A DNA stretch of 64,000 nucleotides from Eledone cirrhosa. Taxonomy: Eukaryota. Below the pieces are notes generated by a model that was not told where the DNA came from, did not search any database, and saw nothing but the letters and a program-made list of their open reading frames with translations. Where the stretch lies: contig OZ024757.1 in the NCBI GenBank assembly GCA_964016885.1, forward strand, positions 23,746,001 through 23,810,000, read 5' to 3'. Shown here piece by piece: positions 2,331-62,634 of the stretch (position 1 is its first letter; every line of letters starts with the position of its first letter). The position numbers and the translations under genes were made by a program.

Positions 2331-2553
2331 TTTATATATAATAGGAAAAGCGTCATGACCCCGACGTCCAGACGGCTTGAGCTCTGCCGTCGGGGTCCTG
2401 ACTCTTTTCCTATTACCCACTCTAATACCCAAAGTATTGAGTACTCTGGTGTGTTATGGTCGACATGGTTCCTTACCACACTTCCTTCGTTATATATATA
2501 TATAATATAGATGAGATTCTACAGGACTAGAAGTGTTTCATTCTTGAGAAATC

Positions 2554-2604
2554 AGATTCCTGATGATTTCTCAACAATGAAACAGTTCTAGTCTTGTAGA
2601 ATCT
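2554..2604 (+). ncRNA. Type I hammerhead ribozyme-like motif (family A) in palindrome 2504-2614
   Basis: AGAUUC-CUGAUGA-uuucucaacaau-GAAACAG-uucuaguc-UUGUA/GAAUCU: stem I 6 bp, intact core, stem III ACAG/UUGU, GUA site. Stem II is weakened in this copy. Confidence 0.7.
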
Positions 2605-3257
2605 CATCTATATTAAAACTTTTATACTCTGGGCCATCTAGTATAGTATAAGTTGTGTTGTGTCTTGCAGAAACAATATGTCAGGATGAATAGGATGAGC
2701 GTATAATGTAAACAATATGAACTTACTATATGTATGTGCCTTAGAATATATTAGTGTCTTAGTAGTAGTGGTCAATCTGTCAGGCAGGCATGGCTGGCAG
2801 TCTGTTGGTGGCCGAGAAGATAGAAGCCAGTAAGGGCCAGGATAGAGGAAGGGTAAACAGTCTACTGATGCCTACATCGTTATCACTTGCTGACTGCCAC
2901 TTCGAGACTGTCCTCTTGTTTCCTTAACTCCTTGTATTTATAATAAGTGCTAAAGTTAGAAGGATGGATATATGAGGTTGATTTATGATCAGCCCTGTGG
3001 CTATTGTCTCCCAAGAAGCTGGAGTCACAGGTCAAGTGTAATGTACATTTATCATCGCTGTCTTTGACAAGACAATGGTGAGAACCTCCAACGATAGATT
3101 GTCCTCAGATTCGGTTTCGAATCTTCGCCGGTAAAACATATGAGTATTCCGTTATATATATATATATATATATATATAGTGAAAAATTAAACGGGAACAA
3201 AACAGAGAAGCAGTACGAACAAAGGCTTATTAGTTTCACGCTCTTGAGAGTGGGGTG

Positions 3258-3288
<31 letters not shown>

Positions 3289-3970
3289 AGAATTAGCCGT
3301 CGAAACGGCTTGAGCTCAGCCGTCGGGGTCTTACTTGTTCCTATTACCCACTCTGCTACCCTAAGTATTGAGTACTTTGGTGCGTTGTGGTCCACCTGGT
3401 TCCTTGCCACATTTCCTTCGTTATATATATATATATATATGTAAAAGGTAGACAGAAATAACAACACAATCGGTACAGTATATGAAAGGAAATATGAGGT
3501 TAACGCTTGAATGCGTGTGTGCAACAAATATATTTTCAGAAAGAGAAAGTGAGAAAAATGTATAGACAGATCGTAAGAGATAGGGGAGACATAGAGTTAT
3601 TTCCCTTTGACTGTTTTTTTTTTTTTTTTTTTTCCCCAAATTAATTCTGTTCATGCTTTGCCGTGGTTTAAAAATACCACTAATTGGAAATACTTGTTCT
3701 GAATCAGTTTACACCTGATATTTACGATATCAATTTAAATATAGATGATTGTTATTACCCGTGGGGAGGAATAAGGTATACCTACTTTTTATTATATTGC
3801 TCTGAAAATCGTATTGAACATTTCTTCTAAAATGGAATTAAGGACCTGTTATTGTCCTCGCTGGTTTTAAATTCCGACCCACTAAAACATTGTGACTTCT
3901 TCATTTCATCTTTATTATATGTATGTAACTATTACTATTGTTATGTTAATTAATTATAATAAATATTAAT

Positions 3971-9400: not shown

Positions 9401-10559
9401 TAAAAAATGAGCAGTATTTTACGTGTCTGTAATTTCTGACACAACATCTTTATTCATTTTAGTTTTATGAATATGCTCCTGAATAGTATTTAGTCAAGCT
9501 TTTTATTGTTGAATGTTTTTTTTGCTGCTGTTTCTAGCTATCCACATACCTATTCACGTCATGTAGACAAAACTGAGTGAGACACGGTGTTATTTTTGTA
9601 ACTCCATGAGTGTGTCTGTAATTCATCAGGCACAACATTTTATTTTTGTATATGTGGGCAGGATGCTTTTTGTTATGATACAATCATGATAACTTTATAG
9701 AGTAAAGGTGGTGTGAACAGAAGTGGCTGGGTGTTATGGCATGGGAGGTGTATGGAAGAGGGTATAGTTAAGAGGTGCCTACTAGATGTATATTTCAGTC
9801 CGTGTGCATGGGTAGGCAGGTCTTCTGTATTACTGCATAACACCAAAGATCTCAATCCTGTGTCATTGTTTTTGAGAGGTCTAATTCCACAAGGTCAGAT
9901 TTTAACACCTGGTCCCAGATCATCCTACTCCATAGCTTGTCAACTTTGATCGTCCTGCACCTTTTTATACAGCTTCATCTTTCATACACATCACATGTCC
10001 ATACCAATGCAATCTCCTCTCTGGCACATTGCATCTGATCCCTCTTATGCCCAATTTCTATCTCAGTTCATTTATGCTTTGCTGTTCATGTATATTACTA
10101 TTACACATTCATTGGAACATGGCAGGCTTCATTTCTTTCCAGTCTTTGCAGGTATTCTGCACACAGTGCCCAGGTCTCACTACCATACAACATTGCTGAT
10201 GCATGTATATGGCATGCATCATACAATCTATCCTTCATTTTAAGGTAAAAACCTTTTGTAGCAAGCAACTGTAGTAGGTCCCTGAACTTTCTCTATCCTG
10301 TTCTTAATCTCCTCCACTGCTGATTTGGTCACCCAGGTAACAGAAACTGTCGACTTTTTCTATAGAGTGTCTGAGCATTTAAAGGAGCTAGTATTCTGTG
10401 GGCACTTGCTACTTACTGCACCTGTGTATCGGTCACATATGAAATCTACATTCTTTGATAACCTGTCAGTGATCCCACTATGTCTTTTATGCACCCATAG
10501 CTTGCATTTCGGACATATATATATATATCTATATATGAATATACATATATAAATATATA

Positions 10560-11060
10560 TATTAATGTTCAGAGCCATCCTCAGCATTCTCGTGTAGCAC
10601 CCATCCACCATCTGAGTGAGTCTCTTGGTCAGTGTCCAAGTCTCGGACCCATACAGCAGCACAGACTCCACTACAGCAATGAAGAGGCGGATTTTCAGGT
10701 CTCTACGAAGGTCCGACTTCCACACCGATCTCACTGACGTCATGTATACACTGAGGATGAAAAACTCAGAGCTGTATGGGAGCATCCCAAAAGTCAGCTC
10801 AAAAGTGACACAGAGGAGACTGAGGTTGGCTGGACATGCTCACCGACATCCAGAGTTGACATTGCACTCAGTGCTCCTTTGGGAGCCCCTACATGGACAC
10901 ACTAGAAGAGGAAGACCAAGGTTAACATATGTTGATGCCCTAAGGACAGACACTGGTCTGTTGGAGATGCAGGATATGGCAGCGATAATGAGGGACAGAG
11001 ACCGCTGGAGAGAACTCGTCCATGGATCTCGGGAATTTTACCCGCCTTAGATAGATAGAC
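10560..11060. mobile_element. RTE-like LINE 3' fragment with 5' inversion (10560-10738 minus, 10738-11050 plus)
   Basis: Minus part: LKIRLFIAVVESVLLYGSETWTLT..RMLRMALN. Plus part: RMKNSELYG..RRLRLAGH..RGRPRLTYVD. Inserted within an older minus-strand RTE relic (about 9900-10510). Confidence 0.85.
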
Positions 11061-16410: not shown

Positions 16411-37811
<21,401 letters not shown>

Positions 37812-38519: not shown

Positions 38520-41075
38520 TGAAATATACTGAGTAAAAACATTCTTGTGCTTTGTTTTATTTGTCATCCTTTGCCCTTTATATATTTCTACCACATTGTA
38601 CCAGCTTTCTGAAATACTTATCAGTCTTTTAAGGAAAGATATGTGTGGACAATGTAGTTCTAGAAATAGCAGCTAATAAGGAAGCCTTGACATGATAGAA
38701 ATAGTAGCCACCCAAAGGCATTATACTCATCATTCAACATCCTTGTCTAGTTTAACATCTTCTTTACTTGTTACAAGCATTGGAAGGTTTTGGTAGACCT
38801 TTTTCAAAGCATCTGTCCAGAGTGTTCATACCTGGGATAGGTTTTAGTCCTGGTTCCAGGCTTTCTGATCATCCCTGAATACTTTTTTTTTAGCTCTTAC
38901 ATGAGCCCCCTCACCTTTTCCTTGTCTACCAGGAGCTACAATCTTGGTACATTGATGTATCCACTCCCAACTACAGTTCACATGTCCAAACCAACACAGC
39001 CTGTGTGATCTTAAAACAGAGTTGAGTGCTGGTATCTTTAAGTTTGGGTAGAGAGATGCCATGTCCAGCAAACCATAGCATTTTCATTAATCAATAAACA
39101 TATTCAAGAGTTAGTGTGATTCTGTAGGAGGGCAATGCTGCTGTCAATAAAAACAACACACTGATGATAAGATAGAGAGATCATCTGACCAAATGGGCGA
39201 CTGTATGGGTACCTTGGTCCAGTATCAGGCATCATCAAAGAGTGTAGAGTCAGATTTGCAGGGCATTGCTGGGGAGCTAAAGATGAAATTGTTAGTGAAG
39301 TTATTTTGTGGGGGCCTACACAAGGCTAGAGTTATTAGAGGATGACAAGCCAAGACTTATATTAAGTAGATTTGAGATGACATAAACAACAATCTCTCTG
39401 ACCTGCTGAATATGATGAACAATAGAATTGGACGATGACAGAATCAAGGGAATCCATGTAAGCAGTACAATCTATTGATTGATTGAATTAAAACGAAATC
39501 AAAATGAAAAGGAGACTCAGAGAAACAAGAATATCTATTGAGGTCACAGAATGTGTGACAAAAGAGTTTTGATAACTAAATATGACAATTAAATAACAAT
39601 CTTGTTACTAAACGTAAATTCACCATGGAGGATGAAAAGAGATGACATGAAAGCAACAAGGGGAAAAGACCATTCTGGCAGTTGTGGATTAGACAGAGTG
39701 AAGAGGAAGCATATATGTGGGCGAGAGGCCAGAAAATGTCTGTAGTGGCTTTAGCCCTTTAGTTTCAGCTCGGCCTAAACCGGCTTTGGTTCTATGAAAT
39801 AAAACCACCCATTTTAACCCTTTAGCATTTACATTACTCTATATTTATTATTGTATTTTCGCAGTAAAGGCTTTATCTCCTATAATTATCACACATAATA
39901 TCTATGAGATTTTGATATTATTTATTTTGAGAACAATACCTTAACGTCAGTATGAGCAGCTGGGTACAGCCGGTTTGAACAAAAAGAGGTGAGAGAATTC
40001 TGGCCAGATATGGCCGGTTTAAATGTTGAAGGGTTAAAGGTTTCCAATTTAAATTAAAATTTTCCAACATAATTTCATATAAGAAGCTTGAATGACTGGT
40101 ACTTTATTTTATCGACCCCGTAAGGATGAAAGGCAAAGTTAACCTCGGCAGGATTTGAACTCAGACCGTAAAGGGACATAACTATGCTAGAAAGCATGGC
40201 GTCAGACCCTCTACCGATTCTGCCATCCACCGCCCCTAAGGCGGAGAATAATAATGGTTTCAAATTTAGACACAAGGCCAACAATTTTGCGAGAGGGGAA
40301 AGTCGATTAAATCAACCTCAGTACGTTACTGGTACTTTATTTTACCAACCCTGTAAGGATAAAAGGCAAAGCTAAGAAGTCTTCAACCATTGATTCTCAG
40401 AAAACTAAAGCCTTCTAGATGAAATTAGGTAAACAGAAACTGTGCTGATGCCTGTCATGTGTCTGTATATGAGTTTCTGTCAGTGTGAGAGAGAATGTGC
40501 TATTTATTCGACAAGGCCAGAACTTTTTGGGCGAGTGGGGGAGTGGTTAGTTGACTATATCGATATTTGTATTTAACTAGTACTTTATTTTATCGACCCC
40601 TCGCAAAAAAATGGAGGGCAGAATTGACATGGGATGAAATTAAAAAGTCTGTAACAGAAATACTGCACGAAATTTTGTCCGACGCTCTAACCATTTCACC
40701 AATTTATAACCGTTGACGTGACGAAAATAATGTTTTTTTTTTGTTGTTTTTGTTTTTCAATGCAAGGCATCTTATATTTGTGACAGTTCTAACGATTCTG
40801 AAGAACATTCACCGGAAGAAGACAGGAGAACACATACATATACTCACATATATGTATGTTCTAACGATTCTGAAGAACTGACACCGGAAATAGACACCCC
40901 CGCCCTTCACACACACACATATATATATATACATACACACTTTAAGCATAGATACATACACACACACACAAATAGACATACATACATACAAACATATTCC
41001 GGGTTGAATCGGAAGTAACCACAGTAAGTAAGGTACTCAATACATGGCAGAGTATAAAAGTTTTAATATAGAAGA

Positions 41076-41124
41076 GATTTTACAGGACTAGAACTGTTTC
41101 ATTCGTGAGAAATCATCAGGAATC
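41076..41124 (-). ncRNA. Hammerhead ribozyme-like motif (family A) in palindrome 41066-41180
   Basis: Minus strand GAUUC-CUGAUGA-uUUCucacGAAu-GAAACAG-uucuaguc-CUGUA/aAAUC; one stem I mismatch. Confidence 0.7.
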
Positions 41125-41171
41125 CCCGATGATTTCTCACGAATGAAACAGTTCTAGCCCTGTAGAATCTC

Positions 41172-41223
<52 letters not shown>

Positions 41224-41897
41224 CCCGGGTTCAATCGGGGGTAACCACAGTTAATAAGGTACTCAATACATAGAGTATATACAAGATTTAATATTAAAAA
41301 ATGGCTTCTACAGGACTAGAACTGTTTCATTCGAAGGAAATCATCCTTCACGATGATTTCCTTCGAATGCAACAGTTCTAACCTTGTAGAAGCCATTTCT
41401 ATATTAAATCTTATATATATATATATGTGTGTGTGTGTAAAACAAATAATAAAACAAAAGACAACAAAAGTAAATACATACACTCATAAATAAATACAAA
41501 CTTACCGAATTCTGGTCCCTTGCAATCTGAATACAGATGCGTATATATCTGTGTTTTTCTCCCTTTATATTGAATTATATATATTTTTGGGGGAGGGTCA
41601 TATTGTTATAATATTGCCAGAAATAATAATAAAACACATTCACTGTTTGGTATTGATTGGTTTTCGCTTCTGTATATTTTATATCCCTATAGTTAATTCA
41701 GTTGGCGATCAATGTTTATCATTGATTGACCAACAGTTGGTTAAGAATATAGATAAATATTTGGGATTATCAAATTTGCTAAGGTAAGATTCTTTTGTTA
41801 TCTTAGCAATCTTGATTTTTTTTCTAATGCATTGTACGGTTTTCAAAATTATTTAAATTTGTTACCTATTTGCTTCAAGCAAACTTCAACACTCTGT

Positions 41898-52685: not shown

Positions 52686-53387
52686 CATCATCATCATCAT
52701 CATCATCATTTTACGTCCGCTTTTCCCTGCTTGCAAGGGTGGGACGGGTCTTATTCAGCACAGCATCTCTCCACTCGTCACGGTCCCTCGTCATCTCCAC
52801 CGTGAGCTTCAACGATCTGAGGTCTGTTCTCACCACCTCCGCCCATGTTTTTCGTGGTCTACCTCTACCACGTCTTCCTTCAACTGGCATTTCCTGGCAC
52901 TTCTTCACCCATCGGTCATCCTCCATGTGCATCACATGTCCATACCACCTCAGTCTCCTCTCCCGTACACTACATTCTATCCCTCTCAGACACAGTTTCT
53001 CTCTCAACACATTTATGCTGGGTCGTTCACGCACATTTACACTGCACATCCAACGGAGCATGCTTGCCTCATTTCTCTCCAGCCGTCGCATATCCTCTGC
53101 GGTTGCTGCCCATGTCTCACTACCATGCAGCATCGCGCTCCTCACACAGGCATCATACAACCGGCCTTTCGTACGCAGGGAGAAATCCTTCTTCGTCAAC
53201 AGAGGAAGCAGCTCCCTAAACTTCTTCCAACCCGTCCTTATTCTAGATACTATGGCCTCGGAACACCCTCCTCCCATGCTAATCTGATCTCCTAGGTACC
53301 GGAAGCTATCCACTACTTCTATAGCGCCCTCTCGCATTTGAAAAATGTGTCTATCAGTGCGACTTCTACTGTCTAATTTCCCTGTAC
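52686..53387 (-). mobile_element. 5'-truncated RTE-clade LINE (end of RT/thumb region to 3' tail)
   Basis: ORF 52711..53337: EVVDSFRYLG..KGRLYDACVRSAMLHGSETW..RRLRWYGHVMHM..RGRGRPRKTW; (ATG)n tail. Confidence 0.9.
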
Positions 53388-53414
53388 ATATATATATATA
53401 TATGTATATATATA

Positions 53415-53511
<97 letters not shown>

Positions 53512-53559
53512 GGAAAAGAATGAAATGAAATTTCATTTCTCACTCTTAGTACAGCTGAT

Positions 53560-55645: not shown

Positions 55646-55789
55646 TGTAATCCGCCTTTATGCACGAAATTGTATTTTCAATAATGTGTTAGGTGAGAAA
55701 TTAGTTGCTTATTTTTTTAATTCGTCCCACGTATTTCGTTTTTATTTGTCTGCAGTTTTGCTACACACACACACAGGTATATATAATAA

Positions 55790-56405
55790 TCATCATGCGT
55801 CCGCTTTTCCCTGCTTGCAAGGGTTGGACGTGTCCTATTCAGCACAGCATCTCTCCACTTGTCACGTTCCTTCGTCATCTCCTCAGTGAGCTTCAGCGAT
55901 CTGAGGTCTGCTCTCACCACCTCCGCCCATGTTTTACGTGGTCTACGCAGGGAGAAACCCTTCTTTGTCAACAGAGGAAGCAGCTCCCTAAACTTCTTCC
56001 AACCCATCCTTATTCTAGATACTATGGCCTCAGAACACCCCCCTCTCTTGCTAATCTGAGCACCTAGGTACTGGAAGCTATCCACCACTTCTATAGAACC
56101 CACCTGCATTGGAAAAATGTGTCTATCACTGCGATTACTACTGCTAACTTTCCCTGTACATCTACTGCATATGTAGTTTTCCCTACCTGTTAGTTTGCCT
56201 GCTATCCCGCTACATCTCTTGTGTTCTCAGGATCTGCATTGTGTGCATTTTATAGAATTTATGCCAGTTCCTTTTCTGCATATCGAACATGGCCATTTCC
56301 CTGATGGAATCAGGGTTTTGTCCTCTTTTCTACTCATCAACACTTTTGTCTTAGCTAGGTTCACTCTCAGTCCTCTTGCTTCCAACTGCTGTTTTCTGAT
56401 TTCTT
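55790..56405 (-). mobile_element. Same RTE family, internally deleted copy
   Basis: ORF 55717..56109 matches 52711..53337 but joins FSLR directly to RPRKTW. Confidence 0.88.
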
Positions 56406-56924
56406 ATGTATGAAACAGTTCTAGTCCTGTAGAAATCATTTCTATAATAATATGTATGTGTGTGTAGACACACACATACATATTAACACACACAGATATA
56501 TATATATATATATGAAGGCACATGTAAAGTGGTCATGGAGGTGCCATGGCAAAAAAGCACCCAGCACTCACTGTAAATGAGGTTGGTGTTAGGAAGAGCA
56601 TCCAGCTGTAGAAATCAAGCCAGAATCAGTTTCTGTACCACTCTTGCAAGCAGGGAAAAGCGGATGTAAAATGATGATGATGATGATGATATATATATAT
56701 ATGAAGGCGTGTGGCTGAGGGGTTAGAGAATTGGATTCACAATCTTGGGGTTGTGAGTTCGATTCCTGGACCAGGCGATGCGTTATGTCCTTGAGCAAGA
56801 CACTTTATTTCACGTTGCTCCTTCTACCTGGAGTTGCGACCGATAGATAGTACTAGCAACTGGAAAGACCAACGGAAACATTGTTTCCTCGGTCCGATTT
56901 GACGAAAGTCGATCGATAAAAAAA

Positions 56925-61177: not shown

Positions 61178-61390
61178 CGAAGGAATTGTGGTAAGGAACC
61201 AGATGGACCATAACGCACCAAAGTACTCAATACTTAGGGTAAGAGTGGGTAATAGGAACGAGTAGGACCCCGACGGCTGAGCTCAAGCCGTTTCGACGGC
61301 TAATTCTGGACTAAAATGGACTAACAATTTAGTCCAGAATTAGCCGTCGAAACGGCTTGAGCTCAGCCGTCGGGGTCCTACTCGTTCCTA
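61178..61390 (-). mobile_element. Foldback element family G (3' half of a hammerhead plus about 75-bp tail); other copies at 2343-2490 and 3285-3420 (+)
   Basis: Palindrome 61253-61390 contains GAAACGGCU-ugagcuc-AGCCGUC/GGGG; same body and tail (taagtattgagtac...ccttcg) in three copies flanked by simple repeats. Confidence 0.7.
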
Positions 61391-61570: not shown

Positions 61571-61924
61571 GTGTTTTACACCTCTATTCTTTTAAATATA
61601 TATATATATATATATATATGTGTGAGTTTTATTGTAGTACAATAAAGCAATGCAGATATCGGATAAGAAGCACTCTACAGTTTGTAGGACTGGAGTATAC
61701 ATAATATATAAGAACAAAAGATGGTTAAAAGAGTTCCATGTATTTTATTATGCGCATTTCAAAAACAAATATCATCATATAATAATATTTGTGTTTTCAT
61801 CAGATAAAACAGGAAGACATGATATGAAGGTTAAAAAACACTTGTGGATAGTGCAGTTTTCATATGTTGATTTAAAACTGCACTATCCACAAGTGTTTTT
61901 TAACCTTCATATCATGTCTTCCTG

Positions 61925-61991
61925 TTTTATCTGATGAAAACACAAATATTATTGCATGATGATATTTGTTTTTGAAATGCGCATAATAAAA
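61925..61991 (+). ncRNA. Type I hammerhead ribozyme (family D); mirror copy on minus strand at 61743-61809
   Basis: UUUUAU-CUGAUGA-long AU-rich stem II-GAAAUGCGCAUA/AUAAAA; 6-bp stem I, self-complementary AUGCGCAU stem III, AUA site. Confidence 0.8.
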
Positions 61992-62272
61992 TACATGGAA
62001 CTCTTTTAACCATCTTTTGTTCTTATATATTATATATATATATATATATAATTAGAAAGTGAACAACACAAAATATAACTACTCCATTACCAAAGGTTTC
62101 TGGATCCCAGACAATAATAATATACATCTGGATCGGTCGTCAGACAGAGATGTGTTGTTTACTTTCTAATTAAATAGCTCTGTTCTATACATAGAGCACT
62201 CTTTTTTCCTTTGCTTTTCCTTCGGAATTACCTAACATATATATATTCATTTTATTAAGGCTAAATAGTGAG

Positions 62273-62374
62273 TCTTGTTACTCTGGAGTTTCACCTGCTA
62301 CTCACAGGATCATCAGAGAAAACATCTTGTCTGGTGACTCTATGAGAAGCAGGTGAAACCTCAGAGTTACAAGA
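62273..62374. ncRNA. Pair of mirrored degenerate hammerheads (family E)
   Basis: Minus arm: CUGAUGA-uCCUG..CAGGu-GAAACUCcaGAGUA/ACAAGA. Plus arm: UCUUGU-CUGGUGA...GAAAC..GUU/ACAAGA. The consensus of the two arms is a full hammerhead. Confidence 0.6.
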
Positions 62375-62634
62375 CTAGATTGGCAGTATAGGTAGAGGGT
62401 CGGACGCCACGCTTTCCAGCATAGTTACGTCCCTTTACGGTCTGAGTTCAAATCCCGTCGAAGTTAACTTTGCCTTTCATCCTTACGGGTTCATAAAATA
62501 AAGTACCAGTAATGTACTGGGTAATTGTTGGCCTTGTGCCAAAAGTAGAAACAATTATTTAGCCTTAATAAAATGAATATTTAAATTCTACTTCAGTGTT
62601 GAGTACTCTTATCTCACAGCTGTCAATGACATAT

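Follow-up and report, generated by a model that had tools for sequence, protein, structure and literature searches.

Two copies of a short repeat, here called family A, lie in tandem at 40997-41179 and 41224-41412 of the window, by which we mean the whole 64,000-nucleotide stretch of Eledone cirrhosa DNA that was analysed. Each copy consists of two arms placed head to head, both built on a hammerhead ribozyme motif, and of a tail on one side. Comparison of the arms supports the derivation of both arms from one source sequence per insertion. Family A very probably represents ends of Penelope-like element (PLE) origin, and there is a good chance that its inverted arms arise by twin priming, in which both target ends prime on one RNA or on two RNAs of one locus. 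The hammerhead and the PLE, both absent from the initial annotation of this stretch, explain the layout of the copies.

Anatomy of family A in the window

BLAST searches with copies 1 and 2 as queries found five family A loci in the window, three palindromes and two solo arms. The unit is ~125 nt long, comprises the hammerhead motif and the tail, and stands head to head with a shorter inverted copy. In copy 1, the tail (40997..41065, minus strand) is a 3' extension of the long arm only; the long-arm type I hammerhead motif follows at 41076..41124 (minus) and the short inverted arm at 41125..41179 (plus), with one core change and a (TA)n run at its end. In copy 2, the tail occupies 41224..41282 (minus) and the long arm 41283..41345 (minus), with a hammerhead that lacks the 5' strand of stem I and the two bases with which the core begins; the apex (41346-41351) and the short inverted arm, which has a decayed core, together span 41346..41412 (plus). 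The palindromes match themselves at 93% over 114 nt (copy 1, E 2e-42) and 86% over 146 nt (copy 2, E 5e-42), far beyond chance. Both copies have the same orientation, are spaced 226 nt apart with a (TA)n(TG)n run between them, and carry a one-sided tail of 55-70 nt. The initial annotation had placed these copies correctly, together with their loop II letters (in both arms alike, TCAC for copy 1 and CTTC for copy 2) and the words that flank them (gagatt/aatctc and ggctt/aagcc, respectively).

The third palindrome, copy 3 (2503..2631, plus; long-arm core at 2560), is missing most of its tail, of which ~15 nt are left. Two further fragments that had been reported do exist, with different extents: the one starting at 28857 runs to ~28967 and is a solo arm with a tail (copy 4, 28857..28967, plus), its 5' end joined to (TA)n, and the one placed at 56410 is a solo arm without a tail (copy 5, 56397..56450, plus) that terminates at the inner end site described below. 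(TA)n adjoins at least one side of four of the five copies, and copy 5 ends in a TA/TG-rich run. Both ATGs within the family A motif reach stops within five codons.

Copy 2 is bordered by a candidate 26-nt target-site duplication (41198..41223 and 41413..41438, both plus). The two stretches are identical at 25 of 26 positions and are the sole two such places in the window, and they consist of microsatellite sequence. Around copies 1 and 3, no duplication could be delimited. No record in four public sequencing runs (see below) bridges the locus; run X1 matches 40600-40900 without differences and run X4 matches part of the left flank. Judging from its arms, which are more drifted than those of copy 1, copy 2 probably inserted earlier. 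Just right of copy 2 lies another high-copy repeat (41590-41740; a similar stretch occurs near 30740-30790), and to the left of copy 1, at 40787-40890, are two direct copies of a 54-nt unit, 72 nt apart, with a CUGAAGA core-like word.

A hammerhead motif in each arm

Read towards the tail, each arm presents the parts of a type I hammerhead motif in order: stem I, CUGAUGA, a short stem II with a 4-nt loop, GAAA and stem III. The stem III loop is 8 nt long and contains the palindrome CTAG, and the cut is predicted after GUA. In the long arm of copy 1 (all minus strand), these parts are stem I (41120-41124 with 41076-41080, first pair broken), CUGAUGA (41113-41119), stem II (41101-41112, loop II at 41105-41108), GAAA (41097-41100) and stem III (41083-41096), with the predicted cut after GUA between 41081 and 41080. 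The full core (CUGAUGA, GAAA and UH) occurs in two of the eight arms (2560 plus and 41119 minus), the other six being truncated or mutated. The long arm of copy 3 is the sole family A arm in the window that passes a strict hammerhead descriptor; its helices are a stem I of 6 pairs, a stem III of 3-4 pairs and a stem II of 2-3 pairs after U...U. Rfam hammerhead models gave no match at gathering score in the window, and none among 27 hits with E<=1 or 3 hits with E<=10; the 27 hits were to models of generic (miRNA) hairpins, scored far under the gathering threshold of each model, and were discarded.

The motif is likely self-cutting. The lowest-energy monomer fold given by RNAfold is another, inactive structure, and the 16-nt stem III segment has a predicted energy of -1.4 kcal/mol alone versus -12.8 kcal/mol as a dimer. 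In these predictions, the palindromic loop III favours a dimer, and PLE hammerheads have been proposed to act as dimers (PMC4209133). Among the 40 listed of 155 variant rows from the public runs, loop II accounts for eight, and positions 41081-41104 and 41109-41122 (core and stems II-III) for none, a distribution somewhat biased by alignment seeds. Since the whole motif is kept in most copies, the template was presumably uncut at the family A hammerhead in most insertions.

The arms of a copy share one source

We compared the six palindrome arms over 51 shared alignment columns. In all three palindromes, the nearest relative of each arm is its own partner, as the initial annotation had noticed for copies 1 and 2. 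The arms of copy 1 are 2 substitutions apart and at least 4 from any other arm; those of copy 2 are 5 substitutions and one gap apart and at least 7 and a gap from the others; those of copy 3 are 3 substitutions apart and at least 4 from the others. Columns private to both arms of a copy number 7 in copy 2, 2 in copy 3 and 0 in copy 1. Copies 1 and 2, which differ from each other by 8-11 substitutions in the 51 columns, belong to different subfamilies and inserted separately into the same microsatellite. In the three window palindromes, there is no column by which long and short arms can be told apart, and no A-to-G editing pattern was seen between arms in this alignment. Identity within copies, combined with the lack of a column that marks long or short arms, indicates that the palindrome is not copied as a unit.

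Two preferred 3' ends and clustered 5' ends

To one family A arm we matched four public runs at 80% likeness (X1, X4, X5 and X6; X4 carries a second species label). This gave 8632 contigs in X1, 5265 in X4, 314 in X5 and 6893 raw reads in X6, figures that are not copy numbers; family A exists as thousands of variants in two species. An exact 22-nt family A pattern had no match in metagenome or viral contigs.

Among the 24 of 420 loose-end rows listed, the tail ends at 40999-41002 with TA-rich flanks in all four runs. Also among the listed rows is an inner end at 41059, supported by 409 reads of X6, perhaps from few loci, and in keeping with the short arms found in the window. On the 5' side, the listed rows place the boundary at 41122-41124, beyond which agreement falls to 0.40-0.63; the next nine letters beyond 41345 are still shared and complete the core and stem I, after which agreement drops to 0.45-0.46 (200 and 324 contigs). 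Thus, most copies begin within ~10 nt of the ribozyme 5' edge. A minority (35 contigs in X1) extend further 5' with a shared stretch, which is T-rich and ends in CAG at stem I; speculatively, it could be a splice acceptor, by analogy with Drosophila virilis Penelope.

Of 29 joints, 15 were listed, and 12 of the 15 are strand switches. A single row, at 41122, is symmetric (14 contigs in X1, 5 in X4, 0 in X5 and 43 reads in X6); this row hides unaligned apex letters and is no proof of a fixed apex. The remaining 11 of the 12 listed rows are asymmetric, each supported by 1-3 contigs. In eight of the 12, the ribozyme is present in the inverted arm only: this arm begins at 41104-41123, and the tail arm ends at 41042-41058 (7 contigs in X1, 7 in X4, 1 in X5 and, in X6, 65 reads with 11 different starts). 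At 41045 and 41058, two of these stop points, the commonest subfamily also diverges from the reference, and the true stops may lie somewhat further in. One arm starts at 41117-41123, the ribozyme 5' edge, in 10 of the 12. A deletion across the apex after insertion could mimic some non-overlapping joints; the clustering of these 10 starts is unlike random deletion. Strand-switch joints from a reference with both arms were left uncounted because a tandem join looks alike there; that reference gave one between-letters row, from 41122 to 41387, at a depth of 430. The initial annotation had proposed a variable inversion breakpoint. The apexes do vary among the window copies (2551-2563, 41117-41127 and 41345-41351), but the concentration of one arm's start at the ribozyme 5' edge limits how freely the breakpoint varies.

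X6, matched to positions 41056-41124, also contains head-to-tail family A units of ~77 nt (77 reads, 15 starts), in which the inner end site is joined to a start 8-15 nt before stem I.

A twin-priming model for the inverted arm

The two preferred 3' ends, the clustered 5' ends and the non-overlapping joints are, like the anatomy and the shared source of the arms, direct observations. For the insertion itself we propose the following course. A GIY-YIG endonuclease would nick both strands of a (TA)n microsatellite. One DNA end would then prime at an outer start site, the end of the tail, and the other at an inner site ~60 nt further in, 5-13 nt before a small conserved hairpin. Each cDNA would run towards the RNA 5' end and stop independently, usually at the ribozyme 5' edge. 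An outer cDNA that extended past the inner site would displace the inner one, leaving fully overlapping arms. Finally, the two cDNA 3' ends would be joined, with 0-6 shared or added bases.

The main alternative keeps the PLE origin but makes the second arm by fold-back (self-priming), with the first cDNA or an antisense template serving as its own primer. The initial annotation had suggested that the second arm was templated from the same molecule at insertion, by fold-back or template switch; the shared source stands, and fold-back as the general route does not agree with eight of the 12 listed strand-switch joints. In these, the inverted arm holds sequence that is absent from the tail arm. 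An inverted arm with the ribozyme and a tail arm without it cannot be fold-back copies of each other, which favours priming from both target ends. Copy 5, a solo arm without a tail, ends at the same inner site, so this site works as a start without inversion; in addition, the short arm of copy 2 may reach further 5' than its long arm (41346-41349). Fold-back would readily give the fully overlapping arms seen in all three window palindromes, no other single row has as much support as the symmetric joint, and self-priming is the hypothesis put forward for PLEs in PMC3846280. On balance, we consider fold-back unlikely.

The remaining alternatives fare much worse. Arms could come from different templates and be equalised later by conversion in a cruciform or hairpin. 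Palindromes can convert, and arm identity alone cannot date the event. However, the arms have already drifted by 2-6 changes without repair, a separate route to the inversion would still be needed, and conversion would have to be complete in three of three copies; this makes conversion very improbable, and the later homogenisation that the initial annotation had offered as a second option is unneeded. A palindromic MITE, or another unit that moves as a whole hairpin, would be short, high in copy number and associated with TA, as family A is, and one apex class does recur in many contigs. Against it, the two outer ends are different sequences and there are thus no terminal inverted repeats, no column splits long from short arms across copies, and solo arms and at least 12 joint types are found in place of a fixed apex with fixed ends. 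The initial annotation had likewise argued against a fixed MITE; the unlike outer ends, variable apex and solo arms largely refute a MITE identity, to which we attach hardly any probability. Finally, copies 1 and 2 could be a two-unit retrozyme array, since they are tandem, in the same orientation, hammerhead-bearing and spaced by 226 nt, and short head-to-tail units of ~77 nt occur in X6, but with two subfamilies separated by 8-11 substitutions in 51 columns, microsatellite between them and a candidate target duplication belonging to copy 2 itself, such an array is scarcely credible.

A search of five of the 50 ORFs in the window found no reverse transcriptase (RT) or endonuclease domain, which counts against the PLE reading, nor was a protein-coding parent of family A found among those five. 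Broken ORFs at 10360-11050, 52711-53532 and 55717-56226, which we take to resemble C-terminal pieces of LINEs, gave no RT match in Pfam. The minus strand at 32695-33162 contains an alpha-tubulin acetyltransferase exon (Mec-17, PF05301, E 1e-25).

A hairpin motif in the tail and its kin in other elements

The tails of family A contain a hairpin motif, ACTC-N11-GAGTAC in copy 1 (41033..41053, minus), with counterparts in copy 2 (41259-41276, minus) and copy 4 (28923-28944, plus). The short arm ends 5-13 nt before this motif, and the tail extends to 52-57 nt past the motif start; a second copy would lie a few bases beyond that point. At the tail end, RNAfold predicts a small terminal hairpin with an AC-rich 8-nt loop (40997..41014, minus, in copy 1, and also in copy 2; these two copies only).

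Besides the tails of copies 1, 2 and 4, ACTC-N-GAGTRC occurs in those of four further repeat families of the window, three of them with a full hammerhead core and family B with the 3' half only. A first count gave 11 occurrences versus 2.0 expected, with a pattern drawn from these elements and hence not a clean test. A widened motif that allows a G-C pair occurs 14 times versus 3.95 expected (maximum 12 in 200 resamples), again with a pattern drawn from these elements; element tails account for 11 of the 14, among them that of a sixth family at 62177, and 3 lie elsewhere.

Four more, unrelated head-to-head hammerhead palindromes lie in the window. In those at 61696-62038, 28597-28756 and 28346-28526, a tail lies on one side and contains this hairpin motif; no motif was seen in that at 62271-62376. 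Family B (61253-61390, 2339-2492 and 3285-3422) consists of the 3' half of a hammerhead with a palindromic loop III; its tail motif is close to that of family A, and no CUGANGA was seen in its three copies. At 62085-62237, a minus-strand hammerhead (core 62143) abuts a plus-strand arm that seemingly begins at the cleavage site, and the stem I letters at the apex are common to both arms; one cDNA made from cut RNA and joined via stem I complementarity would fit this arrangement. Its tail motif (62177-62199) is closely like that of Hydra-2_Ajap in the published consensus sequences. A 3.2-kb (TA)-type array at 24965-28215 contains repeated tail pieces of family D (one at 26698) and may be an assembly or expansion feature.

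In the PMC8557442 supplement, which served as the held-out test of the pattern, RCTC-N-GAGYRC is exact, by eye, in three of six new Hydra consensus sequences; the A-T pair of family A is G-C in these three. Hydra-2_Amil and Hydra-2_Ajap have the exact motif after the hammerhead, Hydra-1_Ajap has it twice at the element start, 61 nt apart, and Hydra-1_Crog has variants of it (all by eye). It was not seen by eye at the ends of Hydra-1_Amil and Hydra-1_Obim given there, and the lack of an exact tail motif at the given ends of the octopus Hydra consensus counts against a link to this clade. None of the words 'hairpin', 'stem-loop' and 'stem loop' occurs in the main text of PMC8557442, nor did the listings of a literature search that covered few subscription journals name the tail hairpin. 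Family A probably belongs to the Hydra clade, whose defining protein marks are RWK, DKT and a CxCX5C linker, without CCHH.

A more specific version of the model is tentative, and we rate it at slightly below even. Hydra PLE inversions would result from twin priming on a single RNA, accompanied by strand displacement; two RCTC/GAGY hairpins ~60 nt apart, bound by protein, would set the two start sites, and the tail would be their spacing. Family A would then be a very short non-autonomous passenger, made of the hammerhead and the first hairpin, with a fixed 5' end. Support comes from the presence of the motif in six window families, from Hydra elements of coral and sea cucumber that carry it in a compensated G-C form, from the two copies in Hydra-1_Ajap and from the non-overlapping joints. 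No published account of such a twin-hairpin start-site mechanism was found in a search that covered few subscription journals. The tail hairpin would be a specific RNA signal and a route for assigning protein-less stubs to the Hydra clade.

Comparison with known systems

In LINE-1 twin priming, the second target strand primes inside the RNA, which gives a 5' inversion. There the two parts hardly overlap, whereas family A often has full overlap and a fixed inner site. Our literature search, which covered few subscription journals, listed no account of the mechanism proposed here for Penelope, for the tails of the Hydra clade or for non-autonomous inverted hammerhead elements. The locus itself is ordinary; how PLE inverted ends and one-sided tails are built is the wider question. 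Short, high-copy stubs with variable loop II letters are barcodes for the source of each arm, so that twin priming and fold-back can be tested against each other from genomes alone.

Cervera and de la Pena 2014 (PMC4209133) described paired hammerheads on opposite strands ~100-700 bp apart, whereas those of family A abut. Opposite-strand pairs, the type I fold and a palindromic loop III suited to dimers are common to both; the motifs in that study are mostly solo motifs from truncated PLEs, and their usual G10.1-C11.1 pair is U...U in family A. Metazoan non-LTR retrozymes (PMC7229834, 10.64898/2026.07.22.740005) are also non-coding, carry a type I hammerhead and are proposed to use PLE enzymes, but they form head-to-tail arrays of ~170-400-nt units, unlike the dispersed head-to-head stubs of family A. 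A non-LTR retrozyme array was rejected for copies 1 and 2, which are two unlike subfamilies with microsatellite between them.

The layout of head-to-head arms, a one-sided tail and (TA)n targets is already known for PLEs. Arkhipova 2013 (PMC3846280) described EN+ PLEs with an inverted pLTR, a tail and a target-site duplication (TSD), and proposed self-priming. Like family A, these are head to head with a shorter inverted copy, a tail at one end and a target duplication (a candidate in family A); their tail is 31 bp and their TSD 8-10 bp, versus 55-70 nt and up to 26 nt (candidate) in family A. The self-priming proposed there fits the non-overlapping joints poorly. For PAc, a Poseidon element of Anolis, Frangieh 2024 (PMC11167929) found in vitro that both strands are cut and extended, that synthesis starts at two internal sites bounding the tail, that uncut RNA is the main template and that targets are AT-rich; inversions were not reconstituted in the available portions of that paper. 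The PAc ORF starts inside the hammerhead, unlike family A with its early stops, and the ~95-nt start-site segment in its supplement has, by eye, no RCTC-N-GAGYRC, which family A has.

Craig 2021 (PMC8557442) described an inverted 5'-truncated copy at the 5' end and a one-sided tail in PLEs, and named the origin of the inverted ends and tails as a task for in vitro work. The tail length published there, 30-40 nt, is shorter than the 55-70 nt of family A. According to its supplement, nearly all Hydra families insert in (TA)n; family A shares this target, which is common to Naiads and not specific. The family A hammerhead, in sense orientation at the 3' end, matches the Hydra rows of File S2 in design, a comparison made within the Hydra clade. 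Counted within that clade only, stem II closes with U...U in 14 of 25 families, and a stem III of ACAG/(C or T)TGT-A, cut after A, occurs in 4 of 25. In family A, loop III is an 8-nt palindrome, versus 1-3 nt in the Hydra table, and there is no ORF, unlike in Hydra-clade PLEs. Shared with Hydra PLEs are the 3' hammerhead, the short stem II with U...U, the ACAG/CTGT stem III and the RCTC-N-GAGYRC tail, and for one Hydra family an inverted copy with a 5' truncation is listed at the 5' end, as in family A.
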